Assembly: GCF_018977255.1 (NCBI RefSeq) | Contig: NW_024704743.1 | Coordinates: 62,001 to 126,000 of the forward strand | DNA: 64,000 nucleotides | DNA from: Callorhinchus milii | Lineage: Eukaryota | Reading direction: 5' to 3' | In this document: one piece after another, positions 1,297 through 61,500 of the stretch | How positions within the stretch are numbered: the stretch's first letter is position 1 | How the letters are laid out: the number at the start of each line of letters is the position of its first letter | The notes under the pieces: model-generated | Told to the model about the DNA's origin: nothing | Seen by the model: only the letters and a program-made list of their open reading frames with translations | Database searches by the model: none | Made by a program: the position numbers and the translations under genes

Positions 1297-1387
1297 TGCG
1301 ACTGCAACTCGATGACAGAGCGGAACCTGGGGCAGAACAACAACAACAACAACAACAATTTGCTAACTATCTTACATTTCGTGCCCG

Positions 1388-39294: not shown

Positions 39295-39331
<37 letters not shown>

Positions 39332-40309
39332 CACTAAGTCAAGCAAAACACCCAATCTACAATGGGATTTATCCCTCAGGATTCAGCTCGCGGCGAACAT
39401 GAAAAAAATCCTGGCATTGGGACAGGACAGTGTCCGGAAGCCATTCCCGGTAGGAAGTTGAAACACGCTTCCCATCTCCGTGAAAGGCACTATGCAAATA
39501 ATTTGTGTTGCTACTAAACTATAGTCCAGGAGCTCAGCGGTTAGAGCACTTGCTCTCACAAACAAGGTGACCTGTGTTTGATTTCCGCGCGGGACAAAAC
39601 CTTAAGCAAATTTCCTTACCCCACACGCCTCTGTTTACCTCGCAGCAAGCAGGAACCCAGTTGTTAGTCGATTGGCAGATCGCTTTTTAGGGGTAATAAT
39701 CCCACCCCCCCCAAAAATTTGATCACTCAGTCCATGACTGTTTGTGGTTCACTGCTGTGCCCGATTGGCTGCCGCGTTTCGCCCACAAACATATACAGTC
39801 AATTCACTTGACAGTATATTCTGTGAAGCGCTTTGAAACGTCTCATCGACATGAAAAAGCGCTACATCAAATGCAAGGATTATTATTATTATTTATATCC
39901 TGTGAAGAAGCGCTTTGAGACGTGTCAACGACACGGTAAGGCGCTATCGCAAAGATTATTACTATTATAGCGCTTTCAAAGAGCTGGCACAGGCACGATG
40001 GGCCAAGCGACCCTCCTTCTGCGCTGTAAGATTCTATGAAAAGTTACTGATGCTAATACCAGCGTGCGTGGGAAGTGGTGTGGGGGGGGGGAAGGGGTGT
40101 GCGGGGGTGAAGCGGGCAAGGGAATGCGATGCACTCCTGGAATGCTGAATTTATGGAGAAAAAGTAGGAGAGAACGATTTGCAGAAACAACTTAAGGGCT
40201 CCTCCCAGCAAGTAGCTCTCTCTCACTTCCCATAATGGTCAGGAACACTGCCGCAGGCACCAGTCACGTCAAAACAAGCATTACTTAGCAGTGAGACAAG
40301 TACACACAC

Positions 40310-40354
<45 letters not shown>

Positions 40355-41399
40355 GAGAAAGAGAGCGCAGAGTCAGCCCACAGTTTAATCCTCGCCAAAG
40401 GACAAAAAGACAAAGATTTGAACGTGGCTTTCAAAAAAAACCCACAGAATTCAATAATAGATAATAATTCTTGCATTTGGTATCGCGCCTCATCGTGCCA
40501 TCTACATGATGATAATAATAATAATAATAATCCTTGAATTTGACGTCTCAAAGCGCTTTGCAAAATATACTGTAAAGTGACTGTATGTTTTGTGGGCAAA
40601 ATGCGGCAGCCACTTGCACACAGCAGTGTCCCACAAACGGTGGTGGATTGAGTGAGCAAATTGCCATTTTTTTAAGGGATTATTAACCCTGGAAAAGCGA
40701 TCCGCCAACCGACTAACAACAGGGTTCCTGCTAGGTAACCAGGTGTGTGGCGTAAGGAAACATGCCCAACCTTTCACCCTACCCGGGGAATCAAACCCAG
40801 GGCCTTTCAAGAGATGGAAAAGGCAAAGTGGGTATGGGGAAAATGACAGATTTAGAATAACAACAACGACAATTAATAATAATAAGAAGAATCCTCGCAT
40901 TTGACATCTCCTAAACCTCTCAAAGCGCTTCACAGAATACACTGCAAAGTGAATTGACCGCATACTTGTAAGTGAAAGGCGGCAGCCGATTGGGGCAACA
41001 AAATGCATTTATATAGCGCTCTTCACGCCGGACAGCGTCTCGGAGCCCTTAACAGTGTCTGAGCCCGATGCCGAGCCGGGGGGAGTGGGGAAGTGTGACC
41101 GTAGGCACGGTCTAAGAGGAAGGTCTTCAAGCGCGACTTGAAACTGGGGAGGTGGGAGCGAGGCAAGGTGGAGGAATTGAGGAAGAGAGTTCCACAGCTG
41201 AAATGTGGTTAATTCAAAACTCAAACAAACACGCAAGTATCAATGAAGTGTGAATCCGTGCCCTGCTCCATTACTGCGACATTCTCTCTTCTTTTCCCCA
41301 CCCCTCACAAAACAAACAGTCACTACGCTGGACAATATATTCTGTGAAGCGCTTTGAGATGTGTCGAAGATCTAATAAGGCGTTATATCGAATGCGAGA

Positions 41400-41431
<32 letters not shown>

Positions 41432-44400
41432 AGCAGATCAGTATAGAGAATTTTACACCCGGCAAGATTTAAACTGATAATAAACTTTTCGTTATTTTAA
41501 AGAAACCCGACTGCTCTTCCCCCCAACACTGTGCAGCTAAGGTCCTGATGGAGCGTTAACCTCAAGCCTCTCCCTATGGTCTGTCTCCACTTGCTGTGCG
41601 CTCTGGCTCACCCGTCTTGTCCTCTCTCTCTGTTGAGCCTACCTGCTCTGTGTTGAGGCTCTGCTTGTTGAGGGTCCGCTCTGTGTGCTCGCTGCGTGCT
41701 CTCGCTCTCTGTGCTAAGCTCTGCTCTCTGGCTCTCGCTGTGCTCCGGCTCCACTCGCTGTGTCCTGTCCCCGTGCTGCTCTCTGGCTCTCTCTGTGCTG
41801 AGGCTCTACACTCTCTGGGCTGAGCTCCGCTCTGTGACAGGAGTGAAGTTTGATGTGCATCAGAGCAGAGGAGGAAGTGGAGAATTCGGGACTCCTCCTC
41901 TCCCGTGTCGCTCCGAGGATGAATTCCTGGTCGCTGTAGCAACTGCTCCCTGCACCTTCCCACGGTCCCTGGGGCGGAGGGAGGAGAGAGAGAGAGAGAG
42001 GGAGAGGGAGAGAGAGACTGATCGGAATTAACCCTCTGTGCGGCAGGCAACTGACACATTGTGGAATACTGCAGCTCGCTAGTTAGAGCACTCGCCTCCT
42101 CGCAAACGAGAGCACCTGGGTTTGATTCCCAGGCAGAGCAAAACCTTACTTCACACACACGCCTCTGTTCAACTCGCAGTAAGTAGGGACCCAGTTGTTA
42201 GTCGATTGGTGGATCGCTTTTCTGGGGGTAATAAAAAAAATGATAATTTTGGTCACTCAATCCACAACTGTTTACGGGACACTGCCGTACGCAATTGTCG
42301 GCCGCGTTTCACCCACAAATTGTACGATCAATTCACTTTATATCCTGGGAAGTGCTTTGAGACGTCTCGAAGACGTGATAAGGCGCGATATCAAATGCGA
42401 GGATTATTACTATTATCGGGCAGATTAATAAGCTTCCCATTTGACACTGTGCCTTTATAATAAAATAATAATAAACCTTACATTTGATACAAAGCTTTCC
42501 ACGTTGGGGGAACGTCTCAAGGCGTTTAATAAGATGTAATGTAAAGTGTAGTGACTGTTTTGTAGGAGAAAGCGGCAGGCAACTGCGCACAGCTATGTCC
42601 CACAATCAGGTATCCTGGCCAACAGGAGAGAGAAACTTCCTTCTCTTTTTGAACAGCACTGCGGGATCTTTAACATCTACCTGACAGGCAGTTCCAAGTC
42701 CCGATCTGGAACTTAAACCCACATCCTTCTGACTCAGAGAGTGTTACCACCTGAGCCAGTCTTCAACAGCCGTGTCCCACAAACAGTTGTGGATCGAGTG
42801 ACCAAATTTTTTTTTGTTGAAGGGATTATTGCCCCTGGAAAAGCGATCCGCCAATCGACTAACAACCGGGTTCCTACTTACTGCTGTATGAATTAAGGAA
42901 ACTTGCCTAATGGAACCCGGGTCCTCTCGCTTGCGAGGCGAGTGCTCTAACCACTGAGCTACAGGACTCCATAAATCGATTAGTTTTGATGATTGCTAGG
43001 AAAAGAAAACAGGACAGAATGTATTACTGGTGTAAAAATGCCTCCTAGTGGCTGGTCGGACTCAGTGGCAAGTCTATGCTGGTATGGTGCTTCCCCCTAG
43101 CTGGGACTTTGAGGGCTGAGATAACTCCAAGGTGACGTGTTTGACCACAGGATGACAGGATCAAATCAACCCTCGGTGGTGATCTCCATAGTCTGGTTCC
43201 TCAGCCTGACAAGTGTGCAGTACTCCAGGACAATGCGCTCCCGGCTCATCGTCAGGACTCGGAGGGGCAGACCGTTAACTGGGGATAGGGATGCTTCCCA
43301 CTCAGCTCTTGTTAACCCTCCAAGTCAAAGCCCTGATCGGTCCCAGCAGTAGGAAACCAGACAGTGCTTTTCATAGAGAGGTATGCAGTGTTAGCTGGTT
43401 AGACTCCAGCAGTTATCCCAATGCACTCTCTGGAGTGACTCTTGCCAACCTGTACCTAATACTCTCTGGAATTGGGTAAGCAGGGAAACAGCGTATTGCA
43501 GACAAAATAACTTTTTCATTTAACACTGCAGGACTCCTGAATGCTTCAGTTGTGGGTCAGTGCACTGCAGAAAAAACACACGGGGGGAACGGGACATTGT
43601 GAATACTCTGTACAGTGCTCTGGTCAGCTCACACCTGGAGGACTGCATACAGTTCTGGGATCTGCGACATAAAGGGGCAGTGCAGACGAAAGCAATGAGT
43701 ATGATTCCCCCGTGTTAAAGGAAGGAGTTAATAATAACAATCCTTGCATTTGATATAGCGCCTTATCAAGTCTCCTCGACGTCTCAAAGCGCTTCACAGA
43801 ATATACTGTAAAGTGAATTGACTGTATATTTGTGAGCGAAACGCGGCAGCCAATTGCGCACAGCAGCGTCCCACAAACAGCCGTGGATTGAAGTGACCAA
43901 TTTATTGATTTTTCTTGAGGGATTATTATTAGGCTCTGTGTGGAGTAAGGAAACTTGCCCAAGGTTTCGCCCTCTGCCGGGAATCGAACCCAGGTCCTCT
44001 CGCTTGTGAGGCGGGTGCTCTAACCACTGAGCTACAGGACCCCACGTAACTTAAAGTAACGATTAGACAAGTTAGAGCTGTTCAGCTCAGAAGCTATATC
44101 AAATGCAAGGATCGTTATTATTATTACTATCTGTGAGTCGGAGGGACTAATAATAATCCTTGCATTTGATGCACAGCGCCTTATCAAATTGTTGAGACGT
44201 CTCAAATTGCTTCTCAGGATGTACTGTAAAGCAATCAGCCAATCGATTAACAACGGGGCTTCTAGTTACTTCTAAGTAAACAGAGGCGTGTGAAGTAAGG
44301 AAACTTGCCTGAGGTTTTCCCCTCGGCCAATATCTTACTCCACACGCCTTTGTTTGCCAAACAGCAAAGCAATTAGAAAGGAGGAGGGGAATGGCATCGT

Positions 44401-44508
44401 GCCCAATGAAAATTTGGGCAGAAGCAGTCTCTTGCGCTGTTTTACATCTACAAGTTTGGGCTTGTCTCTGATGACAACTTCCTTTTCTCGATTGATTCCT
44501 GAACGGCA

Positions 44509-44545
44509 GGAAATGAAAGCAAACCCGACTCAGGAGGCGGTGAGT
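44509..44545 (+). promoter_or_regulatory. Candidate IRF/ISRE-like site and the 3' end of a putative non-coding first exon of the kinase gene
   Basis: GGAAATGAAAGC at 44509-44520 fits the AANNGAAA IRF core. A strong donor GCG|GTGAGT follows at 44539/44540 in non-repeat sequence. Confidence 0.4.
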
Positions 44546-44735
44546 GTTTGTGAGTCTGTCAGATTTATACACCAGAAATATTCCAGATAATCTCTTAACT
44601 GTAACTTTCCTTGCAGTTTGTTGTTTGATTTCTGAGAATTAGAAAGAAATGCATCGCAGCACAAGAAGTGGTCAATGAGCCTACCGATCTTGTGCTGGTG
44701 CTCTCTGCTTCAACCCCATTCCCTGCTCTCTCGCT

Positions 44736-45380
44736 CCCCATCTTGTCTGCGCTGGGGCTCGCTCCCCCACTGGAGCTCTCTACATTAACCCCATTTCCTG
44801 TTCTCTCCCCATCGTGTCTGTGCTGGGGCTCGCTCCCCCACTGGAGCGCTCTACATTAACCCCATTTCCTGTTCTCTCCCCATCGTGTCTGTGCTGGGGC
44901 TCGCTCCCCCACTGGAGCTCTCTACTCTAATCCCATCCCCTGCTCCCTCTCTCTCTCTCCCCATCGTGTCTGTGCTGGGGCTCGCTCCCCCACTGGAGCG
45001 CTCTACATTAACCCCATTTCCTGTTCTCTCCCCATCGTGTCTGTGCTGGGGCTCGCTCCCCCACTGGAGCTCTCTACTCTAATCCCATCCCCTGCTCCCT
45101 CTCTCTCTCTCCCCATCGTGTCTGTGCTGGGGCTCGCTCCCCCACTGGAGCTCTCTACTCTAATCCCATCCCCTGCTCCCTCTCTCTCTCTCCCCATCGT
45201 GTCTGTGCTGGGGCTCGCTCCCCCACTGGAGCTCTCTACTCTAATCCCATCCCCTGCTCCCTCTCTCTCTCTCCCCATCGTGTCTGTGCTGGGGCTCGCT
45301 CCCCCACTGGAGCTCTCTACTCTAATCCCATTTCCTGCTCTCTCTCTCTCTCTCTCTCCCCATCATGTCTGTGCTCGTGC
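44736..45380. repeat. Minisatellite, about 9 copies of 71-bp and 81-bp unit variants
   Basis: Unit CCCCATCGTGTCTGTGCTGGGGCTCGCTCCCCCACTGGAGCTCTCTAC... starts near 44736, 44807, 44878, 44959, 45030, 45111, 45192, 45273 and 45357. Confidence 0.95.
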
Positions 45381-46399
45381 TCGGATTGACAACTGACTGG
45401 TTTTGGATCGGAAAGTCCTGTTTTAAGAAAATGTATTTGGCCGGAAGCACTGATCAGACACTAAAAGTCTGTGTAATAACATACAGTACCAATACAGTAC
45501 TGGTTTTGAGAAACTGGGAAGTTGCCATCTGGTGTGAGCTCACTCACTGGAGCTTCACCTGAGTTTAAAGGGTTAAATTATGAGGACAGGTTGTATAAAC
45601 TGGGTCTCTATTCCCTTGCGTTGAGGTTGAAGGTTGAGGGGTGATCTGACTGAGGTGTTTAAAGTGATAATTAGATTTGATAGGGTAACTAGAGAAACTT
45701 TTGTCTTTAAATTAAAGCCAGGCCATTTGGGAGTGAAATCAGGGGCAGTTTTTCACCCGAAGGGTAGTGGAAATCTGGAACTCTCTGCCCCAAAAGGCTG
45801 TGGATACTGGATTCCTCCTTCACATTGTCAAGACTGAGGTGGATAGATGTTTGTTAGGTCAGGATATCAAGGGATACGGGGCAAAGGACTCCTGTTCCTA
45901 TATTCCTATACAATCTCTACCCTAATCCCATTCCCCTGTTTCCCCACTGTGTTCGTGCTGGTGTTGGCTGACCCCCTGCAGCTCTCTACTCTCATGACTG
46001 TAACAACCACACGCTTGCATTTATACAGCACCTTTCACACTAATACACCTCTTCACCTCTTGGTCTCTGGTCTCAATATCCACAAACTGCAGCTCATTCA
46101 AAACCCACATCACCCACATCAAACGGCCATCACCATAGTCCTCCTCTGTCCCCACTGCCTCCTCTATTTTCCTACTCTCTTGCCAGCAGGTCGATTTCTA
46201 GATCCTCACCCTCACCTATAAACCGCTTCACGCATTAGCACCTCCCTAATATACTCCTACCTAAAGTAGAGTTCTGTAGCTCAGTGGTTAGAGCGCTCAC
46301 CAGCGAGAGGACCTGAATTTGATTCCCGGCAGGGTGAAATGCTGGGCAAGTTTCCTTACTCCACACGCCTCTGTTTACTTAGCAGGAATGGGGATGGGG

Positions 46400-48112
46400 C
46401 AGTCAGGGCGGCTGCTGTTGGACAGCCATCTCCGACCATTACTTCATCTCCCTTAACTCCTCAATCTCTCTCCCCACCGCCACCCAACCCACCTCCATCT
46501 CCTACCTCCCCGGGAAAAAACTCTCACCCCACTCCCTCTCCGCTGCCTTGGAGTATCTGAACTCCTCCCACTCAGGGCTTCCTCCCGCAATGACCTATCC
46601 TCCTCGGTCACTCTCCTCTACAACTCCCTCTGCACCACTCTCGATGTTCTTGCTTCCGTCACTTCCTGAACCGTTTCCTACTCACGGAAGTCACCCTGGT
46701 ACACCAGCCACTTCCGCTCCCTTAAGGCTCAGGTGAACGCACTAGTTGCTCCCCTCCTCACAGACATCATAAACCTCTCCCTGTCAACTGGCACATATGT
46801 GGGGTAGAAAGGAAAGTTGAGGGTCAAACAAGACGCCAAGGTTCCGGACTGGTTGGGCCCTGTTTCCACCCCTTTAAGGACGTCCATCATCACTCCTAAC
46901 CTTAAAAATCCTTCCCTGGACCGATCCCTGCTCTCAAGCTACTGCGCCATCTCCAAATTCCCTTTCCTGTCCAAATGCTGGAACGAGTTGTTACTTCCCA
47001 GCTTTGCTTCTTCCTCTCTCGCCACTCCCTTCACGAACTCCTCCAATTGTGCTTCTGTGCTGCCCACAGCGCAGAAATAGCTTTGGTCAAAGTCTGTCTA
47101 TCTGCGACCAGGGCTCCCACTGCCTCCTTGTCCTTCTTGACCTCTCTGCTACCTTCGATACCGTTGACCACTCTGTCCTCCTCCATTGCCTCTCCTCTCA
47201 CCTCAGGCTTCATGGTTCTGTCCTTGAAGGGTTCAGATCCTATTACTTCATCTCCACAAACAGTTTATCCTCTAGCCCCCGCCCCATCTCGTGTGGCGTT
47301 CCTCAGGGCTCTGTCCTTCGTCCCCTACTTTTCAATACCTATATGCTCCCTCTTGGTGACATCGTCCGCAGACATGGGGTCAATTTGCACAATTATGCGG
47401 ATGACACCCAACTCTATCTCTCTGCTTCCACCCTCGACTCCAGGACCCACTGCTGTCCTGATAGAATGTCTGTCGGATATCAAGTCCTGGATGAGAATTA
47501 ACTTTCTACAGTTGAACGCCAACAAGACTGAGACCCTCCCGATTGGCTCCCGTCAGTGCCTCCGCACCTCAGGCACTGATAGCATCACCATCCAAGGATG
47601 GACACTCCACCTTACTAAACCAGTCCGGAACCTGGGTATCTTGTTTGACTCACAACTATCCTTTCTACCCCACATCCGTGCCATAACGCGCTCTGCCTTC
47701 CCTCACCTCCGCAACATCGAGCGGCTCCGGCACTGTCTCACACGGCAGGGTGCTGAGACCCTCATACATGCATCCATAACATCCAAGCTTGACTACACAA
47801 ACTCCCTGCTTGTCGGCCTCCCCAACTCCTTCTTCCATAGGCTGCAGATCATCCAGAACTCTGCAGCCCGTGTCTTCTCCCGCACCAGGTTCCGCAATCC
47901 TATCACCCCCATCTTCGCCGACTCCACATGGCTTCCCATCACAGAGGATACAGTTCAAGATCTTGGTCCTAACTTTTGGCCTGAGTGGGAGGAGTTTAGA
48001 TACTCCAAGGCAGCGGAGAGGGAGTGGGGTGGTAGGAGACGCTAAATTCAGCGCTTTGGGATGTCCTCCCGACGTGAAAGGCGCTCTATAAATGTAATTT
48101 TGTTGTTGTTGT
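46400..48112 (+). mobile_element. L2-clade LINE, degenerate reverse transcriptase ORF2 plus 3' tail
   Basis: Frameshifted RT motifs LLDLSATFDTVDH, GVPQGSVLRPLLF, YADDTQLY, WMRINFLQLNANKTE, RNLGILFDSQL, SKLDYTNSLL. L2 tail GCGCTTTGGGATGTCCTCCCGACGTGAAAGGCGCTCTATAAATG(TTG)n. Confidence 0.92.
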
Positions 48113-48457
48113 AAAGTGAATTGACTGTATTTTGTGGGTGAAACATGTCAGCCAACCGTGCACAGCAGGGTCTCACAATCATGGATTGATCAAAAAAATT
48201 TTTTTTAAGGGATTATTACCCCCGCAAAGCGATCCGCCAATCTCCTAACAACCGGTTTCCTACTTACTGCTAGATAAACAGAGGCGTGTGGAGTAAGGAA
48301 ACTTGCCTAAGGTTTTGCCAGCAAACTCGCTAACCACTACACTACAGGACTCCTGAAAAGCTTTCTTGATCCGAACTTCTTGTATAACAACATATTTGTG
48401 TTGCTCAACAGGCCAAGAAAAGTCATCAAGTGGAGACCAAGATTGAAGAAAGAATCT

Positions 48458-51400
48458 ATGGATTCTGTGCAACAGTGAGTACACCATTGTCTTACTTTGC
48501 GCGTGTATATTATTACCTACATGGGCGAGCGATGGAAAGAATGCTTTTGGCATTTTATTTTTTAGTTTGACTATCCTTGGCCATGGAATGTCAGAGCTGA
48601 GTCAACCTCCGTGGTGATGTTTAGTCTCTTTCCTGAACCAGGTCTTCAGTCCAGTTCCAAGCAGCAGAGAGTAACTAAAACTGCACAGCTCACCATTCTA
48701 ATTGCTGCCATGCTTCCCATTACTTCTCCAGCTAGGACCACCCTACCCCATAGAATTACAAGAGAGGGAGTATCAAGAAAAACTTTGATCGGGGCAAAAC
48801 TAACCAATCAATGCACTTCTCAATGGTGTTGTACTTGTTGACTGTAACATGTTATTGTATCTTCTCATCTGATGCAGGGGTATCTCAAATGTCCCTGAAA
48901 GCAAAGGTGACCTGGAAGAGCTTGAGGGCATCTGCCCAAACAGTGTCGGTGGTGAAAGACTTGAGCAAGGTTGCGACATACCGGACTTACAGAGGCTAAA
49001 CATCGCTGACTCCCAGTGCCCGCGACTCCATGGCGAGGCCGGTGAAAGGGGAATGTTGAGTGTGTGCAGTATGGGGAGAGAGCCTTTCTCCCAATCGTCT
49101 TCCTCGGGAGATACCCAGAGTTCTGACAGCGTGGTCTTCGACTTGCAGGAGAAGAGCCCTGAGGACATGGACACCAGAGGCCTTTCTAGTCTCAGCGATT
49201 TCTGCAGCAGTACCGATCACATTGCGGCCTTCCAGGCAATGGTTAATTTGAAGAAGTTGGACCAGGATTCCAACTTTGACAGTTCTGGAATCAGCAGCTA
49301 CGAAAGCCATGCCAATAATTCAGGTCAATGTTTCACGTGGGAGGAAATGGGAAGTGAGGGCCGATTTGTTCCACCCACACCAAGTTCAGACAATTCAGAG
49401 ACTTGCAGTGGGTCCAAACGCTGCAAATTTCGAAGACGTTCATTGTAAGTTTTAATGTCTGAACATTTCCTTTTGTAATAATACTAACAACAATAATAAT
49501 CCTTTCATTTGATACGGCGCCTTATCATGTCGGCGAGACGTCTCAAAGTGCTTCAAAGGATATACTGTAAAGTGTAAAGTGTACTTCCTGATGCGAAAGT
49601 AATGTAAGCATTACTATATTAATAATATTATTATTACCCTCTATTGTGTTATGTGTCGAATTTTACATTCGCATCTGTTTACTTGACCCTAAACCCATGT
49701 TTGCAGTTACAAGAAATCTTTCCATGAGATATCATGCATTGGGGAAGGATCGTTCGCGCTGGTTTTTCACGTGAAGCACAAGCTGGATGACTGTGAATAC
49801 GCTATTAAATGTGTGGAACTTGCACAGTGAGTACGTTTAACAGAACTGGGGAACTAGCATTTTCACCTCTCTGCTCCTGTTAATCTGGAAGCCAAAGGCC
49901 TAATGGGAAGGGTAGTCCTAACTGGGCAGTCAGGGGGAAGCTGATGCTCGATGGGCTTTGTCTAACTCCTCCCTGTGCTTTGTTCTCAGTGATGTGAATG
50001 AAGAGATGGCTGTAAAAGAAGCCAAAACCCTTGCGAAGTTTCGGCACACAAACATCATCCGATACTACAGCTCTTGGATTGATGTATCGAATTCCACGTA
50101 AGTCACAAAGACAACAAATGCGATCAAATGGCTTCTGCCTGAGCCCGAATGGCCTCCTTCTGTGCTGTAAGATTCTATGATTCATGTTGGGAGGACGTCC
50201 CAAGGAGCTGGACAGTTAGGGATTGGGACCTGAGCTGGGGGTTGGGATCAGATGGGGTGCAGGGCAGTGAGGGTAGGGGTAGGAGTGTGACCGACACATG
50301 CACATGGATTGCCCGACTGAAAAAGCTGATGAAATCTGTAATAGCTTTTAAAAAGGATTTAGCCAAATATTAGAAAAGGAAAAATATAAAAGTTTGTGTG
50401 TCCAGGGGGGGGGATCTCTTTGCAAAACCTTTTCTTTCTGCCTCTGATTTCACTGTTCTCCTAACTTGGTGAAATCTGCAGGTTTAAGAACTTTGCATTG
50501 GATCTGCAAATCCAAATTATTAAATTAAATAATAATTATCCTTGCATTTGATATAGCACCTTATCACGTTTCGAGACATACCAAAGCGCTTTACAGAATA
50601 TACTCTAAAGTGTAGTAACTATATTTTGTGGGCAAAACATGGTGTCCCACAAACAGTCGTGGATTAGTGACCAAATTCTTATAATTTTTTTGGAGGGATT
50701 ATTATCCCCAGAAAGCGATCCGCCAATTGACTAACAACCAAATTCCTACTTACTGCTAGGTAAACAGAGGTGTGTGAAGTAAGGAAACCTGCCCAGTGTT
50801 TCGCCCTGCCCAGGAATCGAACCCGGGTGGGGTGGAAATCTGGGAACATCCAGCAAACCCAAATTAGCTGAGTAGAGGGGGTGGGCAGAGGAGTTGGGTA
50901 GGAGAAGTGTGGTATGTAAGTAAGGACCTAGAAACTGATGTGAGACTGAAACTGAGCAAGCAGTAAACTTGTGGAACAGCCTCCCTCGGGAGACAGACAG
51001 TGGAAACAGAAAGTGTTGATTCTTTCAATAACAAATTAGATAAATCTCTGTCAGGAAATAATATCTCGGATACAATATATAGTTTGGGACACGACATATC
51101 AAGCGACTGCCAGGATAGTGGAAGGCGAACTGGATGGACCTTAATTCAGCGAGCAAATTCTTATGTTCTCATCTGCAAGGAGGTAAGGATCAGGATGATA
51201 ATAATAATAATCCTTGCATTTGATATAGCGCTTTTCACATCTTTTCGACGTCTCAAAGCGCTTCACAGAATAGACTGTAAAGTGAATTGACCGTATATTT
51301 GTGGGCGAAGGAATTGACCGTATATTTGTGTGATAGGAGTGCAGAGTTGGTGAGGATGTGGGTTCCGTACGTCACAACCGACGCAGCTGAAACCCTCGTC

Positions 51401-54400
51401 CACACCTTTGTCACTTCCCAGCAGGATTATTCCAATGCGTTCCTCGCTGGTCTCCCCAGCTCCACCATGCACCAAATTCAACTAATTCAAATCCCCGGTG
51501 AACAGATACTAATCGGCACAAAACTCCATCCCCCCATCACACCAGTCCTTGCCAGGCTCCATTGGCTCCCAAACACCGAACAGATTGATTTCAAGATCCT
51601 CTTGTTTTCAAATTGCTTCATTCTCTTGCACCTCCCTACCTCTCCGACCTGCTTATTATCCCTCACTCCATCATCTGCTGCCTCTGTTCGGCTGACTCCA
51701 GCCTCCTATTTGTCGCTCGTCCCCTCCGTTCCACCATTGGTGGCCGTGCCTTCAGCCACTAGGTCCCAAAACTTGGGAAATCTCTCCCTCAATCCCTCCG
51801 CCTTGCCCCCTCACTCCCTACCCTACCTTCAAATTTTGCCTAAGCACCTTTTTCGATGGTGCCTACAGTCACCTATCCCTCCCTCTCCCCTGACTCATTG
51901 GCACACTCCGCCGCTGTGAAGTGCTCTGGGACACTATCCCGCTTGACGGGCGCTGTATAAATGCAAATTGTTGTTGTTGGGCAGTGGAATTTAAGAATGA
52001 GTTACAGCTTGTGAACGATGGAGTCATGGTCATATGAAACTGTTTCTATCAGGAAAGTCCTGTGTATCCAAATGGAACTGTGCAAGCAAACGCTGGAAAA
52101 GTGGTTCCAAACTGAGAACAGAGAGAATTTTCAACTTCAAATTGCTCAAGACACCAGTCAAGGCCTGTCTTACATTCACAGGGAGAATTACATTCACCGG
52201 GACTTAAAGGTAAGATTTCGACTTTTATTGGAAACAAGTTGCACTGTTGCAGCTCCATCTCACATCGAAACACCTCAAAGCGATTCGCAAGTATCACTAC
52301 AAGGGTGAATTGGGTGAATGACCAAGTTATCGTGGAGTCCTGTAACATAGTGGTTAGAGCACTCACCTTGCAAACGAGAGGCCCTGGGTTCGAATCCCAG
52401 GTGGGGCGAAATTGTTGTGCAAGTTTCCTTACTCCACATGCCTATGTTTACCTAGCAGTAGGTAGGAACCTGCTTTTCTGGAGGGTCATAATTCCTCCCC
52501 CCCAAAAAAATGTAGTCACTCAATCCATGACTGTTTGTGGGACACTGCTGTGTGCAATTGGCTAACCTGTTTTGCCCACAAAATATATAGTCACTACACT
52601 TTACAATATATTCTGTGAAGCACTTTGAGAATTCTCAAAGTCGTGGTAAGGCTATAACAAAGGCAAAGATTATTATTATGTACTGTACCGGAGTGTCAGC
52701 CTGGACTGTGAACTCGGAGTTCCCGATATGGGACTTGAGACCACAATTTTGTCCCAGAAGTGAGAACTTGAGCGACTGACAATTTGGATGAAGAGGGATG
52801 AAGCCTGTGTAACTGTGTTTGACCCTTAACACCCCGCATCACACTGCAGACAGGTCCTGAATTAATGGTTCAATGAGAAAAAAATGCTGATCTGCAAATA
52901 AAATAGATAATAAAAAAAGGCAAGCAGAATCCTTGGCTTTGTACAAGTGCAGAGCATTTGACAGTAACGAGGTGACAATGAACTGCTCAGGCCTTGCAGT
53001 AAGCAGGAACCCAGTTGTTAGTCCCAGTTTCTGAGTGCCCATGTTCTCTCAGCTCGGCTCTGATGACCTTACCTCTTTCCCTAACAGCCTGCCAACATCT
53101 TCTTTGCCAATGACAACACTGTCAAAATTGGCGACTTCGGTCTGGTAACGTCTTGCTCAAGGGGAGGATCCGAGCAATTCCTGCGGTCACCAGACACTGG
53201 GACTCCTTCCTACATGGCACCTGAACAGGTGAGTGTGTGTGTGTGTGGTGTGGGCGGGAATGGGGGGAATGTGTGCATGGATCTCCTGGGGTGAGAAGGA
53301 ACCTCCCTGCTGGACTGCTTAAAACTACCTGGATTTTTAGAAGAATATTTCTTGATTTGGTATTTGTCTCCTCACACCCCTTTTAATCCCAAGTGCTGTG
53401 GAGCAACTCATTATTTTAGATGTGGGTGCCCTCTGACTCACCAACGAGTGGAAATATATCCAACGCTATTTACCCAGTTAATATCTTCTGCACTCTGTTC
53501 TTTGTAAGATTACATTATTGTACAATTGTTTTATTTTTGCAGAGTGAAGAAAATTACAACCACAAAGTGGATATCTATGCCTTGGGCCTCATATTATTTG
53601 AACTCCTCTGGAAATTTGAAACTGTGTGTGAGAAGCAGAAGGTAAAGTTTCTCCATCGTGTGGGTCGACTCTGGAACCTCGCCCACCCACTTCACTATTG
53701 CTACTCCTGAGGCTTGTATTTGACATAGCGCCTCAGCACGTCGTTCAGACGTCTCAAAGCTCCTCATGTAAAGTGTAGTGACTGTATATTTTATGCGCAG
53801 AACGTGGCAGCCAATTACGCACAGTAGTGTCCCACAAACTGTCCTGGATTAAATGACCAATTAATTTTTTTTTAATTTGGAAGGGATTATTATCCCCGGA
53901 AAGTGATCCACCAATCGAATTAACAACCGGGTTCCTACTTATTGCTTGGTAAACAGAGGTGTGCGGAGTAAGGAAACTTGTTCCACCCAGGAATTGAACC
54001 CGGGTCCTCTCGTTTGCGTGGCTAGTGTATATTAAGGAAAATATATATATTTTTTGAAGGGATTATTACCTCTAGAGATCTGATCTCATCCTTCCACTCA
54101 TAGAGACAGGGTTAGAGACAGCCTGAGCTTGGTAGGAGATGATTATAGGGGGAGTAGGGGGGTGGGGGGGGGAGAGAGGAGGGAAGTGACCAAGGCTTTT
54201 TTTAAGGTTGGCTTTGAAAGCAATGATCTTAAGGCCTAGGTCGGGCCTAAACCTGACGACCAATTAAAGGTTATTTCTGGGGCCGGGGAGAGCGTGGACA
54301 TCTCCCCTCTCCTGCAAGGAAAGATCAGAGGATGTATATTAATGAAAGCAAATCAGTTTAAAAGTTGCTGCAGTGAATTAAAATTACATTTTTAATAATC

Positions 54401-55493
54401 CTGATAAAAAATATGGTGGGAGACTGGAAGAGGTGTGCAGGAGATCATTTACAGTTTCCAGGAGAAAATATTACAACAACTTTCATTTATATCGTGCTCC
54501 TCACGCAGGGTAGTTTAATATTAGCTATTAAAGTATGTAAGGAACCTCTTAAAAACTGTAAATGTTTCCACAATGACCCATTTTCCTTTTGGCAGGAATG
54601 GACGGGGGTGAAAAGTGGCATCTTTCCTACAGGATTTCAAACCAGATATCCAAATGAGGTGAGACTTCCTAACGAGTCCTAGCTGACCACAGCACCCTCT
54701 CAGCCCTGAAGTACGTGGGCACTTTGAAACATCAATTCAATTTGTTTCCTTCTTACATTTCCTTCCATTCCCTTCTTTTTATAAGTAGCAGACCACTTCC
54801 ACGACGTCCCAACCCCTACCTCCACAAACTGCAGATCATCTAGAACTCTACAGTTGGTGCCCTCTCCCGCACCGGCTCCGGGACACGATCACCCGCACCC
54901 TGGCCGGGCTCCACTGGCTCCCTATCCCTCGGAGGAGAGAGTTCAAAATCCGCGTCCTCTCCTTCAAGGCCCTCCACGGCCTCGCTCCTTTCTACCTCTG
55001 TGACCTGCTAACCCCATAACAACCTGTCCACTCCCTCTGTTCAGCAGGCTGCGGCCTGCTCCATGTCCCCCGCTGTGCTCCACCATCGGCAGTCGGGCCT
55101 TCAGCCTCTCCATCCCCACCTTTTGTAAATCCATACCCCAGAGTCCCATCGCCTCGCTCCTTCCTTGCCTCCTTCAAAAACTATTAAATTGTAAACAATT
55201 TCAGGACATGACACCATGTACCTTCATCACATCCATGCTGGACTATCCCCCTAAAATATAGTCAGTAATACCCACAGCAGCAATTTCCCTGTAAACTATT
55301 TTGCCACATTTTGCTGTTTGGTAGAGAAGCATTGTTATCATTACGATTATGGAGTTGTTGTTGTTGTTGATGACCATTGGTGTTTGCTCGGCATATCTTT
55401 CAGACTAAGCTGCTGACCAGTATGCTCTCTGCTGACCCCACCAGGAGACCTGAAGCTGATGAGGTCCAGAGGTGCTTCTTGATTGTAGCCTGA
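48458..55493 (+). CDS. EIF2AK2-like: PKR (EIF2AK2)-family eIF2-alpha kinase paralog lacking dsRNA-binding domains, about 453 aa
   Basis: Exons 48412(ATG 48458)-48474, 48878-49444, 49707-49826, 49990-50097, 52053-52209, 53088-53228, 53543-53641, 54596-54658 and 55404-55493 are all GT-AG and phase-consistent (1362 nt, no stops). Kinase sequence: FHEISCIGEGSFALVFHVKHKLDDCEYAIKCV, KEAKTLAKFRHTNIIRYYSSW, LCIQMELC, IHRDLKPANIF, VKIGDFGLVTS, GTPSYMAPEQ, VDIYALGLILFELL, MLSADPTRRP. DFGLVT, YALGLIL and IQMExC are PKR-like. AATAAA at 56120 and 56139. The true 5' end is uncertain because the frame is open to the exon start at 48412. Confidence 0.9.
51360..51980 (+). mobile_element. L2 LINE 3' fragment in a kinase intron
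   Basis: Translation [43 protein letters not shown], followed by an L2-type tail ending in (TTG)n. Many shorter L2 3' fragments occur elsewhere (e.g. 10140-10345, 11330-11670, 54800-55180, 62520-62905). Confidence 0.85.
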
Positions 55494-56429: not shown

Positions 56430-57890
56430 GGGGATGGGGGGATGGAGTTCCAGAGGTTGGGGGCAGAGTGGCTGAAGGCTCTCCCGTCAATGGTGGGCGG
56501 GTGGGTCGGGGGACGTGGAGCAGACCAGAGACGGCTGAGCGGAGGGAGCGGGTTAGGAGGTCAGAGATGGGGTGGGGCGAGACCATTGAGGGCTTTGTAG
56601 GTGAGGACCAGGATTTTGAATTGGATCCTCTGAAGGATAGGGAGCCAATGGAGTCGGGCGAGAATGGAGGAGATGGGGTCACGGAGTTTGGTGCGGGAGA
56701 GGACACGGGCTGCAGAGTTCTGGATTATCTGCAGTCTGTGGAGGGAGGAGTTGGGAAGGCCGACAAGCAGGGAGTTTGCATAGTCGAGCCTGGAGGTGAT
56801 GAAGGCATGAACAAGAGTTTCGGCGGCCTGAGGGGTGAGGTAGTGGCGGAGTCGGGCGATGTTACGGAGGTGAGGGAAGGCAGAGCGGGTCATGGCTCGG
56901 ATGTGGGGAGGAAACGACAGTTGAGGGTCGAACAAGACACCGAGGTTCCTGTCTGGTTTGGTGAGTTGAAGTGTGCCACCGTGGAGGTTGATGTTGGCAG
57001 AGCCTGAGGTGCGGAGGCGCTGGCGCGAGCCAATCAGGAGGGCCTCAGTCTTATTCACATTCAACTGTAGGAAGTTTGCCCTCATCCAGGACTTGATGTC
57101 CGTCGGACAGTCTGTCAGGACAGCAGTGGGCCTGGAGTTGAGGGTGGGGGCAGAGAGATAGAGTTGGGTGTCATCCTCATACATGTGGAAGTTGACCCCA
57201 TGTCTGCGGATGATGTCACCGAGGGGGGGGCAATGTAGATATTAAAGAGAGGGTCAAGGACAGAGCCCTGGGGGACGCCAGACGTGACAGTGCGGGGCCT
57301 GGAGGAGGAACCGTCAAGAGGCAACGAAGTAGAGACGGTGAGAGAGATAGGAATCAAACCAGACAACGGCAGGTCCGCGAAGGTGGAGTAAAGAGGAGAG
57401 GAGATGTATGAGGATGGAGTGGTCGGCGGTGTCGAAGGCGGCAGAGAGGTCGGGGAGGACAAGGGGGCAGAGGGAGCCCTGGTCACGGATGTCCAGAATG
57501 CCACTGGTGACTCTGACCCCCCGGGGGCTGTTTCCCTGCCGTGGGAATTGGAAGGGGCTCTCAAAGAGGGAGTGGCGGGAGAGAAAGGAGCGGCGCTGGG
57601 GCGCGACGACCCGTTTCCAGGACCTTGGAGAGGAGCGGGAGGTCAGAGACGGGGCGACGGCGACGGCGGCGGCTGGAGAGGAGGGATGGGTCAGAGACGG
57701 GGCGGCGGCGGCGGCTGGAGAGGAGGGATGGGTCAGAGACGGGGCGGCGGCGGCTGGAGAGGAGGGATGGGTCAGAGACGGGGCGACGGCGGCGGCGGCT
57801 GGAGAGGAGGGATGGGTCAGAGACGGGGCGGCGGCGGCTGGAGAGGAGGGATGGGTCAGGGACGGGGCGACGGCGGCCGTCATCAGGACA
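56430..57890 (-). mobile_element. L2-clade LINE, degenerate RT, with an internal 36-42 bp tandem expansion at about 57640-57880
   Basis: Minus-strand translations [68 protein letters not shown]. Six copies of GGTCAGAGACGGGGCG(GCG)nCTGGAGAGGAGGGATG. Confidence 0.9.
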
Positions 57891-58552: not shown

Positions 58553-61500
58553 ATGTTCTCGGAGCTGAACAACATCCTGAACAACAGCCCCGAGCAGGTA
58601 AAGGCCCGCCGGAGCCCGGCCCGAGGTGGGGGGGGCTCGTGTGGGTGGGCCTGTGAGGGAGGGAGGTGGAGCCTGTGGCGAGGTGTGTGTGGGACCTGGG
58701 GAGGAGGGAGGAGCCTGTGGTGAGGTGGGAGGAGCCTGTGGTGAGGATTGAGGAGCCTGTGGTGAGGAGGGAGGAGCCTGTGGTGAGGAGGGAGGAGCCT
58801 GTGGTGAGGAGGGAGGAGCCTGTGGTGAGGTGGGAGGAGCCTGTGGTGAGGATTGAGGAGCTGGTGGTGAGGAAGGAGGAGCCTGTGTTGAGGAAGGAGG
58901 AGCCTGTGGTGAGGAGGGAGGAGCCTGTGGTGAGGATTGAGGAGCCTGTGGTGAGGAGGGAGGAGCCTGTGGTGAGGAGGGAGGAGCCTGTGGTGAGGAG
59001 GGAGGAGCCTGTGGTGAGGTGGGAGGAGCCTGTGGTGAGGATTGAGGAGCTGGTGGTGAGGAAGGAGGAGCCTGTGTTGAGGAAGGAGGAGCCTGTGGTG
59101 AGGAGGGAGGAGCCTGTGGTGAGGAGGGAGGAGCCTGTGGTGAGGAGGGAGGAGCCTGTGGTGAGGAGGGAGGAGCCTGTGGTGAGGAGGGAGGAGCCTG
59201 TGGTGAGGAAGGAGGAGCCTGTGGTGAGGAGGGAGGAGCCTGTGGTGAGGAGGGAGGAGCCTGTGGTGAGGAAGGAGGAGCCTGTGGTGAGGAGGGAGGA
59301 GCCTGTGGTGAGGAGGGAGGAGCCTGTGGTGAGGAGGGAGGAGCCTGTGGTGAGGAGGGAGGAGCTGGTGGTGAGGAAGGAGGAGCCTGTGGTGAGGAGG
59401 GAGGAGCCTGTGGTGAGGAGGGAGGAGCCTGTGGTGAGGAGGGAGGAGCTGGTGGTAAAGAAGGAGGGGAGGAGCTGGTGGTAAAGAAGGAGGGGCCTAT
59501 GTTGAGGGGCAGGGCCTATGAGGAGGGGGTGGGGCCTGACATTCCTCCTGAGGACAACACCCAACAACAAACGAGGCATTCACCCCCAGCGGCTTCCACG
59601 TGGGGAGGACGTCCCGAGCCGCCGGCTGGACAGTCGGCGGCCGACTTGCCGCCTGAGCTGCGGCACGAGAAAGATTTCCATTGATACCCGAGCGCGTGGG
59701 CACATCCGACACCCGGTGGGCAGGAGCGGGCGGGCGGGCGGGCGAGGGTCCCGGACAGCTTGTTGCTCGGTTAAGACAAAAGCTGTGGCTGAACACGTGG
59801 CCGCCCATCGGGGGAGCGGAGGGACGAGGGACGAACGGGATGGCGGACCCAGCCGAGCGCCCCTGCCGGCCACTGGGTGGCAATGTCCACCGCTCTGGCC
59901 AGGGCCTCGACATTGGAAATTGTGATGAAATAAGATGCAGGACAGTATTCCCAATAAACCGTGCCGTTCATAGAGCACTTTCTAACAGCGAAGCGCCGCA
60001 AAAGCCCTTCACAGGAAATTGCTGCCATGTGTGGTGACTGTTTTTAGCAATCTCCCACAAACAGCTTGTGGGTAAGTGATCAATTTATTCAGACACGGGG
60101 AGACACTACCTGGCGCCTCCGTCCGCTTGACTGGCTCCGGCCTCCTGTTTGTCCCTCGTCCCCTCCGCACCACCATCGGTGACCGCGCTTTCAACCACTC
60201 CTTCCCTGAGGTGAATGAGGGACAGGGAGAAATTCCCTTTATCCCACGGGATCTTTGATGTCCACTTGCACGGACACCGACAACAACAATTTACCATTTA
60301 TGCAGCACCTTTCATGTTGGGAGGGCAGTCATTTTTTTTTTGGGGGGGGGGTCAGCCGGGTGTCTGACACGTGCAGAAACCCATCACCGTTGCTTAAGAG
60401 TCTCCAAACCCAACTGAGAATTCCATGCATCCCACCCAGACATGGAAATCCCAGAGATGGATTGTTGGAATGTAATGCGCACTCTCTCTCCTCGGAGGGA
60501 AGCATCCCGCTTACCTAATTCCTGAAAGTATTAGGCCCAGGTTGGTGAGAGCCAAGGTCTGGGGACTCGAGACTGGGCGTTGGGGTAACTGCTGGAGTCT
60601 AACCAGCTAAAAAAAAAACCGCAGAGTTTGCCATTGACTGAGAACTGTTTGTAATAACAAATTACATTTTATATACATAGAAGTGTTTCACGGAGCTGAC
60701 TGGAGGAACATAAGAACGTAAAAACATAAGAATTAGGAGCAGGAGTCGGCCATTCGGCCCCTCGAGCCTGTGCCCCGCCATTCGATATAGATCATGGCTG
60801 ATCTTCGGACCCAACTCTAATTACCTGCCCTCTCCCCATATCCCCCAATCCCTCCTATTTTTTAAAAATCTATCAGTCTCAGCCTTGAAGATGTTCAAGG
60901 ACTGAGCATCTACAGCCTTCTGGGGGAGTGAATTCCATAAGGAAGGAAGGTGACCAAAAGCTCAGTTGGAAAGAAAGACCTTAAGTTGGCCTTTCAAGGT
61001 GGGGGAGTGAGTGGTTGAGGAGGGAGTTCCACAGAGCGGGGGGAGGGCAACACCGGCTGGAGAATCAACCCAGCCTATTAACATCTAAAACTCTGGTTCG
61101 TATGTGTTTTTGTATAGGGGGAGTGTGTACTTCTGTGTGACAGTCAGACGGATGGCAACTTTCTTGTCCACCATTTCCTTTCCTTCTATCTGAAAGGTGA
61201 GTGTAAAGGGCGTTCTTACTGTAAGGGGCGACAGCGGGTGTGGGGAGCAATAGGTTGTGCGCGCGAGTGTGTGTGTGTGTGTGTGTGTGTCTGTGATGGG
61301 CAAGGTCCCAGAATTATAATAATACTTGCATTTGATATAGTGCCCAATCACGTTGTTGTGCTTCACAGAATATACTGTAAAGTGAATGTATATATTCAAA
61401 TGCAAGGATTATAGGATTATTAAAAAGTCACTGCCTCGCTTGAGAAAGGCCAGGTGGACTAGTCCTGGTCTGTGCTGAGTTATAATAATAATAAATAATG

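Follow-up and report, generated by a model that had tools for sequence, protein, structure and literature searches.

The kinase gene examined here, which lies in a 64-kb stretch of elephant shark (Callorhinchus milii) DNA (the window), very probably encodes that species' PKR-sis, an eIF2α kinase; this assessment draws on sequence comparison and covers identity and basic chemistry, not the input to which the kinase responds. PKR-sis is an old, conserved PKR paralogue of cartilaginous fishes. Gene and subtype are both already known: the gene is annotated, its 453-residue product being 100% identical to XP_007908568.1, and Wu, Chu, Gong and Han (Sci Adv 2024, PMC11305385) have already assayed the family, giving the name PKR-sis to the sensorless kinases of cartilaginous fishes and listing this accession in their Table S2. 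The original prediction of a new kinase subtype is accordingly not borne out; its description of an intact PKR-clade kinase, conserved in cartilaginous fishes and separate from PKR, PERK and PKZ, and probably from HRI and GCN2, is upheld by the orthologues and phylogeny described below.

Identification as PKR-sis

The type example of the family, catshark scPKR-sis (XP_038664788.1), is characterized in PMC11305385 by the residues E281, K294 and C342, all of which are present in its database sequence. At the positions of PKR K283 and F363 (E281 and C342 in catshark), the elephant shark protein carries H216 and C275, the former non-Lys as in PKR-sis, though not the Glu of catshark. Both are kinase-only proteins of cartilaginous fishes that share the diagnostic Cys; they differ in length (537 residues in scPKR-sis versus 453 in the holocephalan member, which has the shorter N terminus) and in the Gly-rich loop, in which Ala replaces the third Gly in the elephant shark protein but not in the shark orthologues. 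All five PKR-sis rows in the tree, including these two proteins, form one clade with support of 100/100, and all eight do so with support of 98 in a quick tree of 58 rows. That tree was used for the PKR-sis clade alone, as its GCN2 row had been badly cut and had a branch length of 10.

Orthologues are found in seven shark species and in Carcharodon, with kinase-domain identities of 56–61%. Their database names (EIF2AK3, aurora kinase C-like, Nek6-like and Nek7-like) are misleading, making the family easy to overlook. Some lineages seem able to do without the family: the 120 matches listed, out of 696, include none from rays or skates, and the partial Hemiscyllium copy is broken, having neither the catalytic Lys nor the Arg of the HRD. 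Searches of the elephant shark genome with two exons matched the kinase gene alone and so revealed no close paralogue. PKR proper, with three dsRBMs (XP_007907906.2), is encoded by another gene at G000:C3:63.311-63.336 Mb, and the true PERK is located at G000:C1:69.14-69.17 Mb.

Gene structure and upstream region

The complete nine-exon reading frame described originally is confirmed: exons with AG/GT ends join in a single open frame from the ATG at 48458 to a stop codon ending at 55493 (Table 1), and junctions are present in RNA-like contigs. Reads were mapped from 45,400 on, downstream of a tandem repeat at 44,695-45,383, using four presumed RNA-like runs from two studies. Four of the eight splice junctions are present in all four runs. 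The 1,608-nt contig of run X4 spans exons 2–6 and 9, with 166 letters between, exactly the length needed by the remainder of exon 6 plus exons 7 and 8. Because the ATG exon begins at an acceptor, we infer at least one further exon upstream.

Table 1 Features of the PKR-sis gene and its upstream region (window positions)
Feature	Position	Strand	Remarks
ISRE-like element GAAA-N-GAAAGC, candidate interferon-responsive promoter site	44509..44520	+	Pattern match, chosen post hoc
Candidate short 5′ untranslated exon, donor GT at 44540	44521..44539	+	Start provisional; lies 5′ of the read-mapped stretch
Exon with ATG 48458, splice acceptor	48412..48474	+	48474-48878 joint in 4/4 runs; exactly 63 letters precede 48878 in X2, X3 and X4 contigs
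Ser/acidic low-complexity N-terminal exon; S-D-S-V-V-F motif at residue 88, from 49122	48878..49444	+	
Kinase exon: Gly-rich loop, H216, catalytic K229 (49807-49809)	49707..49826	+	
Kinase exon: αC E245 (50018-50020); very short kinase insert begins	49990..50097	+	
Kinase exon: C275 (PKR-sis diagnostic Cys), HRD 319-321	52053..52209	+	
Kinase exon: DFG, activation loop including S357-P358 and T362, APE	53088..53228	+	
Kinase exon: αF and αG region, T397-x-x-E400	53543..53641	+	
63-nt kinase exon, equal in length to its PKR counterpart	54596..54658	+	
Final coding exon including stop codon	55404..55493	+	Contigs extend to at least 55693

The candidate 5′ exon ends at the sole strong plus-strand donor in 34,300-48,500. 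The ISRE-like pattern has five plus-strand matches in the window, and the one at 44509 alone has a strong donor within 80 nt, a situation that holds for 0.6% of positions. This site has a 1-nt spacer; the strict ISRE, with a 2-nt spacer, matches three times in the window versus 2.6 expected, which is chance level, and not at 44509. The PKR gene offers a parallel: about 2 kb before its start codon it has a TATA-like box and a donor, together with ISRE-like sites. We found no data on interferon induction in sharks in the literature covered, most of it outside subscription journals. The gene upstream of the kinase, on the minus strand and with a MORN repeat, fits the proposed ALS2CL, although ALS2 would also be compatible.

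Catalytic core and domain content

As first described, the catalytic set is complete (K229, E245, H319-R320-D321, D339 of the DFG and APE 367-369) and the αG motif T397-x-x-E400 is present; the residues fall in invariant alignment columns, and the catalytic ones are invariant across PKR-sis species other than Hemiscyllium. The claim that the protein has no dsRBM, Z-alpha, RWD/HisRS, luminal or transmembrane domain also stands. A Pfam scan of the 453-residue protein returned kinase families only, with no dsrm, z-alpha, RWD or HisRS; nor does the protein contain a PERK luminal domain or a membrane segment, the top 19-residue hydropathy being 0.54. Among shark orthologues, dsrm is absent from the seven full-length proteins scanned. 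A genome-wide dsrm search gave 20 matches, none inside the window. Within 34–56 kb, a custom dsRBM profile that recovered six exons (14–53 bits) at the true PKR locus found no match, and its sole match in the window, of 11.8 bits, was at 6.6 kb. DNA and genome scans for Z-alpha gave no match but had no positive control; we therefore take its absence from the protein-level Pfam scans, which were negative for the 453-residue protein and the orthologues scanned where three PKZ-type proteins do match.

The PKR of the same genome has a kinase domain 43% identical to that of PKR-sis and shares with it seven kinase-exon boundaries in place and phase, a short insert, the αG T-x-x-E and an upstream ISRE-like site. 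It differs in having dsRBMs and in its location (contig C3 versus C2), whereas PKR-sis is set apart by a Ser-Pro site in the activation loop, a non-Lys residue at K283, Cys at F363 and apparently slower evolution. PKZ of ray-finned fishes is likewise a PKR-clade kinase without dsRBMs, but has a Z-alpha domain and a long insert and forms a separate clade. The best PDB matches of the elephant shark protein are to PERK (EIF2AK3), the kinase intron positions of which are identical; the PERK insert, however, has about 110-280 residues versus 11, and its luminal domain and membrane segment have no counterpart in PKR-sis. Intron positions were considered as a marker of PKR versus PERK affinity and rejected, being common to PKR-sis, PKR and PERK. 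HRI and GCN2 gave lower PDB scores.

The N-terminal region and a linker motif

The N terminus is rich in Ser and acidic residues, with no folded or known domain found by Pfam and no usable look-alike in the ESM Atlas for its catshark counterpart, leaving the originally proposed swapped input module unsupported. The AlphaFold model is poor throughout (mean pLDDT of 41; nine sequences), so that its low score for the N terminus argues only weakly for disorder. Shark N-terminal extensions had no significant tblastn match in 30-49.5 kb, and BLASTP detected no N-terminal resemblance between elephant shark PKR-sis and PKR.

Six of seven PKR-sis N termini hold a significant match (p ≤ 0.009 in each) to a motif derived from PKR linkers, which lies 87-103 residues ahead of the kinase. 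In the elephant shark protein itself it is not significant (p = 0.20), and the PKR linkers of elephant shark and rays lack it. The short Ser/hydrophobic/Phe motif is also present in 68 of the 101 PERK-like inserts. Its location is just ahead of the kinase in PKR-sis and PKR linkers and solely within the insert in PERK. On the improbable rewired-PKR reading set out below, this Ser-rich [IV]-x-F-acidic sequence would have shifted to a place before the kinase in PKR and PKR-sis and would be an unrecognized docking motif common to eIF2α kinases; the literature covered, mostly outside subscription journals, holds no account of the motif string or the insert motif.

Sister to PKR or nested within it

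The careful tree comprised 34 rows; it omitted the GCN2 row, three rows of PKR-sis, four PKR-like rows without further domains (one being P0355, a sturgeon protein on a long branch) and 16 others. PERK was the only outgroup, the trees having no HRI and no usable GCN2 row. PKR-sis clusters with the PKR kinases, PKR-sis, PKR and PKZ together being split from PERK at 100/100. The term 'PKR-derived' used originally holds as regards membership of the PKR clade; as regards descent from within PKR, a sister position is equally unrejected, as the topology test rejects neither placement.

Two origins stand, each with a likelihood a little short of even. In one, PKR-sis branched off before all PKR, as its sister, and has been without dsRBMs from the start, a pre-sensor relic kept solely in cartilaginous fishes. 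The phylogeny published in PMC11305385 favours this placement, which has a p-AU of 0.40 with the PERK-only outgroup; raw similarity to PERK (42.4%) equals that to PKR (42.5%), and the best PDB matches are PERK. Yet it is seen in only 293 of 1,000 bootstraps, the best tree nests PKR-sis within PKR (without support), gene loss in bony vertebrates is demanded, and the pre-kinase motif is common to PKR-sis and PKR linkers but confined to the insert in PERK.

In the other, PKR-sis arose by duplication of PKR, with early loss of the dsRBMs, and retained and expanded the linker between dsRBM and kinase. The linker motif, the upstream ISRE-like site shared with PKR and the short kinase insert (11-13 residues versus 13 in elephant shark PKR) all fit, and 707 of 1,000 bootstrap trees fail to hold PKR together without PKR-sis. 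Sensorless copies of PKR in tarsiers arose likewise (bioRxiv 10.64898/2026.10.23.761390). Tarsier PKR2-4, like PKR-sis, are sensorless PKR-type kinases alongside a canonical PKR, but are recent tandem copies under positive selection, whereas PKR-sis is unlinked to PKR and conserved in chimaeras and sharks. The nested placements (563 of 1,000 with tetrapods, 1 of 1,000 with chondrichthyan PKR) clash with the species tree and so look like noise. The motif, moreover, falls short of significance in the elephant shark protein, does not occur in the PKR linkers of elephant shark and rays, and could be older than the gain of dsRBMs. The N terminus is one large exon in PKR-sis versus five small exons in the PKR linker, and is without BLASTP likeness to PKR.

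Activation loop, dimer pair and rate of change

The activation-loop position and the Arg-Asp dimer pair, which is shared by PKR and PERK, are positions with a role in human PKR; for the activation loop, alignment supports the correspondence. A Ser-Pro site is present in all ten PKR-sis sequences (eight species), but in only 4 of 169 PKR-like sequences and in none of 98 that are PERK-like. Arg-x-x-x-Asp/Glu ahead of the kinase, found in 77/134 PKR-like and 96/98 PERK-like sequences, occurs in none of the ten. Because shark and ray PKRs too are often without the Arg-Asp pair, its loss in PKR-sis need not signal an altered mechanism. Judged by kinase-domain identity, which is higher for PKR-sis than for PKR in all three species pairs (63 versus 48%, 61 versus 51% and 85 versus 68%), PKR-sis appears to evolve more slowly. 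We found no published account of the Ser-Pro site, the Arg-Asp loss, the slower evolution or the ISRE-like site in the literature covered, which lay mostly outside subscription journals.

Proposed function

A yeast test with eIF2α S51A, suggested originally, had previously been published for the catshark orthologue: according to PMC11305385, scPKR-sis alone is silent in yeast and phosphorylates eIF2α Ser51 only upon forced dimerization, thereby shutting down translation. By analogy with this orthologue, with a kinase domain 61% identical, the elephant shark protein is very likely to be a Ser51 kinase. The lack of a nucleic-acid sensor and an apparently weakened dimer surface suggest that PKR-sis would act as a second-tier effector in an antiviral stress response. 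Tentatively, its amount may be set by interferon through the ISRE-like site. It may be switched on in trans, through phosphorylation of Ser357 or by a partner that clusters it via the putatively disordered Ser/acidic N terminus. The trans-kinase route, like the interferon control, is plausible, though we would put each somewhat below even; as Ser357 is a Ser-Pro site, candidate kinases would be activated PKR or a proline-directed stress kinase. Taken jointly, the proposal that PKR-sis is a PKR stripped of dsRBMs before the chimaera–shark split and rewired to be induced by interferon through an ISRE and activated at the Ser-Pro site by a proline-directed kinase, with the common docking motif, is improbable as a whole.

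It is similarly doubtful that PKR-sis is mainly a decoy or dominant-negative, absorbing viral PKR inhibitors or damping PKR instead of working as a kinase in vivo. The silence of the catshark kinase in yeast without forced dimerization (PMC11305385) would fit, as would the catalytically broken Hemiscyllium copy; decoy as well as trans-activation roles have been proposed for the dsRBD-less tarsier PKR2-4 (bioRxiv 10.64898/2026.10.23.761390). However, catalytic residues are invariant in the remaining species, and rapid change would be expected of a decoy pursued by viral mimics, whereas PKR-sis changes more slowly than PKR, which leaves the decoy role raised originally unsupported. That the gene is instead a PKR, PKZ or PERK with missed sensor exons or an assembly gap is largely refuted and very improbable: the ATG exon does have an acceptor and a frame open for 15 codons 5′ of the ATG, shark models are longer by 40-85 residues, the NCBI name is EIF2AK3 and the kinase introns fit PERK as well as PKR, but the sole N gap in the window, at 300-324, is far from the gene, 34–56 kb holds no dsRBM exon with the control working, the genuine PKR gene is on C3 and the PERK gene on C1, orthologues of six shark species lack sensor domains and a second database entry is likewise 453 residues long.

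Whether PKR-sis is an ancestor-like form or a stripped-down PKR matters for the published account of PKR sensor gain, which depends in part on that distinction. Leads on its natural activator come from the activation-loop Ser-Pro, the ISRE-like element and the linker motif. If the rewired-PKR proposal were true, cartilaginous fishes would possess a route to eIF2α phosphorylation that is immune to dsRNA-masking viral proteins.

Identity of the kinase gene

By its sequence, the kinase gene (P0001, XP_007908568.1) is a PKR-sis, one of the already known sensorless PKR-type kinases of cartilaginous fishes. The portion of Wu et al. 2024 available to us (PMC11305385) describes PKR-sis as dsRBD-less kinases, sister to PKR, and reports that catshark PKR-sis alone is inactive in yeast, that its GST fusion phosphorylates eIF2α at Ser51 with a requirement for K294, and that grafted dsRBDs plus two substitutions render it PKR-like; a tarsier PKR preprint (10.64898/2026.10.23.761390), in the part available, refers to the 'PKR-sis' genes of cartilaginous fishes. 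Our catshark protein P0010 is their XP_038664788.1, with E281, K294 and C342 matching. Table S2 of that study (PMC11305385) includes XP_007908568.1; because the table was available to us without group labels, the assignment to PKR-sis rests on the present tree (34 rows, 250 columns, kinase insert removed, without HRI, GCN2 and the Acipenser protein P0355). Here one clade (100/100) holds 5/5 PKR-sis rows, and PKR-sis, PKR and PKZ separate together from PERK (100/100). The original prediction of a sensorless PKR-family kinase that clusters with PKR therefore stands, but not its claim of a new subtype, this being the PKR-sis of the available text of Wu et al. The literature within our coverage, which takes in few subscription journals, uses the name PKR-sis in just two papers and held nothing on a PKR-sis activator, its promoter or its loss in rays.

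Gene structure

Nine exons with AG/GT ends join in the window sequence into a single open frame, which from ATG 48458 encodes 453 aa and matches P0001, named EIF2AK3 of Callorhinchus milii in the database (XP_007908568.1 and XP_042188013.1). Pfam places a kinase domain alone, at residues 201–446, and P0001 keeps K229, E245, HRD 319–321, DFG, APE and T397-x-x-E400. Splice support came from contigs of four runs, presumed to be RNA, from two studies: 4/8 junctions were found in all four runs, and a single contig of run X4 covers exons 2–6 and 9 with the correct intervening letter count. Exon ends, residues and contig junctions thus confirm the predicted complete nine-exon frame with all catalytic residues. 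Contigs from three runs start precisely at acceptor 48412; this hints that the gene has several exons further upstream, beyond the stretch on which the contigs were placed.

Read in a different frame, 48412–48457 shows a by-eye likeness to the N-terminal extension that the shark orthologues carry, as though the chimaera had lost that extension through a small indel; the contigs of the presumed-RNA runs contain no indel there, and tblastn for the extension ahead of the ATG gave nothing significant. The upstream neighbour carries a MORN repeat, which fits ALS2CL or ALS2, and the two genes are oriented head to head; its 5′ exon may lie near 41.5–42 kb, in which case the intergenic space would be small. 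At the left end of the window, a GRAM domain gave a weak match that fell short of the cut-off (E 0.0003) and is probably part of another gene.

Features of the kinase gene and its surroundings
Feature	Position	Strand	Basis or period
GRAM-like stretch	763-1362	-	weak domain match
Upstream neighbour	19018-34265	-	MORN repeat
Tandem repeat	31139-31555		~24 bases
ISRE-like site, candidate	44509-44520	+	pattern match
Tandem repeat	44695-45383		~81 bases
Exon 1	48412-48474	+	AG/GT ends, open frame
Exon 2	48878-49444	+	AG/GT ends, open frame
Exon 3	49707-49826	+	AG/GT ends, open frame
Exon 4	49990-50097	+	AG/GT ends, open frame
Exon 5	52053-52209	+	AG/GT ends, open frame
Exon 6	53088-53228	+	AG/GT ends, open frame
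Exon 7	53543-53641	+	AG/GT ends, open frame
Exon 8	54596-54658	+	AG/GT ends, open frame
Exon 9	55404-55493	+	AG/GT ends, open frame
Tandem repeat	57656-57877		~39-84 bases
Tandem repeat	58697-59507		~21 bases

Sensor domains and the N-terminal region

None of 20 genome-wide dsrm matches is located in the window, and a profile built from PKR proteins, which picks up six exons at the true PKR locus (positive control), detected no dsRBM exon in 34–56 kb. Z-alpha had no match in P0001 or its orthologues; PKZ-type proteins do match. As the Z-alpha scans of DNA had no positive control, this negative is a protein-level result, and with the controlled dsRBM profile it bears out the predicted absence of both domains. 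The three-dsRBM PKR of this genome (XP_007907906.2) sits on chromosome-scale contig C3, and PERK on C1. Ser, Thr, Asp and Glu together make up 37% of the N-terminal 195 residues of P0001, which contain no membrane-like stretch; the N-terminus of the catshark orthologue has no look-alike in the ESM Atlas.

Judged from sequence, this region resembles an enlarged PKR-type linker more closely than it does the swapped-in input module first proposed. The likeness comes from a 12-residue motif profile (39 PKR-linker seeds; significance by shuffle) that scores in 6/7 PKR-sis N-termini (p ≤0.009). In P0001 itself, where the aligned position reads S-D-S-V-V-F, it is not significant (p 0.20), and it has no score in the PKR linkers of elephant shark and three rays. 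Among sets defined by kinase span, with names checked for only some members, the profile matches 62/175 PKR-like linkers (a circular count), 68/101 PERK-like inserts and no PERK-like pre-kinase region. Neither BLASTP, which gave no similarity, nor the N-terminal exon layout, which differs, links the N-terminus to PKR. The accessible parts of three sources (PMC2291453, PMC13613228, 10.64898/2026.07.06.735516) describe the kinase insert as acidic and Ser/Thr-rich and the HRI insert as needed for eIF2α binding; their insert passages make no mention of the motif.

Keeping all sensor-bearing PKR together without PKR-sis cost 1.5 log-likelihood units (p-AU 0.40; 293/1,000 bootstraps), and joining PKR-sis to chondrichthyan PKR cost 2.7 (p-AU 0.31; 1/1,000). 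The commonest placement, with tetrapod PKR (563/1,000), contradicts the species tree. The kinase introns do not decide the origin, since they agree with PKR and also with PERK.

Relatives among sharks and beyond

Among the matches listed, a kinase-domain search returned a distinct set at 56–61% identity (Cetorhinus, Heptranchias with two isoforms, Mustelus, two Scyliorhinus species, Heterodontus and a partial copy from Hemiscyllium), with remaining single-kinase matches at ≤47%; a Carcharodon protein falls within the Cetorhinus cluster. A Pfam scan found no dsrm in seven full-length shark PKR-sis proteins and three in each of four shark and ray PKRs. With a profile of the set, only two cluster representatives, both its own, outscored multi-kinase proteins and ordinary PKRs, so that no bony-vertebrate PKR-sis was seen. 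Nor did a ray or skate PKR-sis occur among 120 of 696 matches listed, where PKRs of four batoids are present.

The partial Hemiscyllium ocellatum protein (P0011, XP_060680032.1) has Asn at the catalytic Lys and Gln at the HRD Arg, and is a pseudokinase or a decaying gene in this carpet shark. Two shark isoforms, P0012 and P0373, are below main-form length; the Heptranchias one, P0012, leaves out the first kinase exon and with it the ATP-binding loop and catalytic Lys. P0355, an Acipenser sinensis hypothetical protein flagged unverified, is a PKR-like kinase that lacks a sensor and sits on a long branch; it groups with PKR-sis (support 92) in an earlier, coarser tree of 58 rows, which could reflect long-branch attraction or a bony-fish relative. 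PKR-like proteins of a frog (P0013), a spiny eel (P0032) and a worm lizard (P0259), without a dsrm match, fall among ordinary PKRs in that tree; either they lost the sensor independently or their gene models are incomplete. Two teleost PKR-like models (P0218, P0184) match CARD (PF00619) beside dsrm and kinase, and are fusions or merged gene models.

A proposed mode of activation

At the activation-loop position aligned with the PKR phosphosite, Ser-Pro is present in 10/10 PKR-sis sequences from eight species, in 4/169 PKR-like and in 0/98 PERK-like sequences. An Arg-Asp pair ahead of the kinase, known as the salt bridge of the back-to-back dimer, is missing from 10/10 PKR-sis and present in 77/134 PKR-like and 96/98 PERK-like sequences; its absence is also common among the PKRs of sharks and rays. 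Downstream of the candidate ISRE-like site comes a strong donor, the only one in the interval 34.3–48.5 kb. One of five plus-strand ISRE-like sites has a donor ≤80 nt downstream, versus 0.6% of positions, a pairing noticed post hoc. The strict ISRE pattern occurs at chance level only. ISRE-like sites and a donor are present in the PKR gene as well, ~2 kb ahead of the start codon.

The Ser-Pro site, the absent Arg-Asp pair and the ISRE-like site with its donor lead us to favour an interferon-raised, trans-activated effector. Its chemistry, carried over from the catshark orthologue, would be dimerisation-dependent phosphorylation of eIF2α Ser51. We infer two inputs: interferon may raise the level of PKR-sis, and PKR or a proline-directed kinase may switch it on in trans, each a step that we rate at somewhat below even. 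The suggested role as a decoy finds little room, as the PKR-sis kinase domain is better conserved than that of PKR in 3/3 species pairs and, where the contigs of one run depart from the database alleles, the changes that alter residues are located in the N-terminus.

Were the candidate 5′ exon (ending at 44539, with a tandem repeat shortly behind it) to begin before its own ATG and be spliced to 48412, a short upstream frame would open (44515–44539 plus 48412–48904), overlapping the main start and stopping in exon 2. Such an upstream frame on the mRNA of an eIF2α kinase could provide translational feedback.
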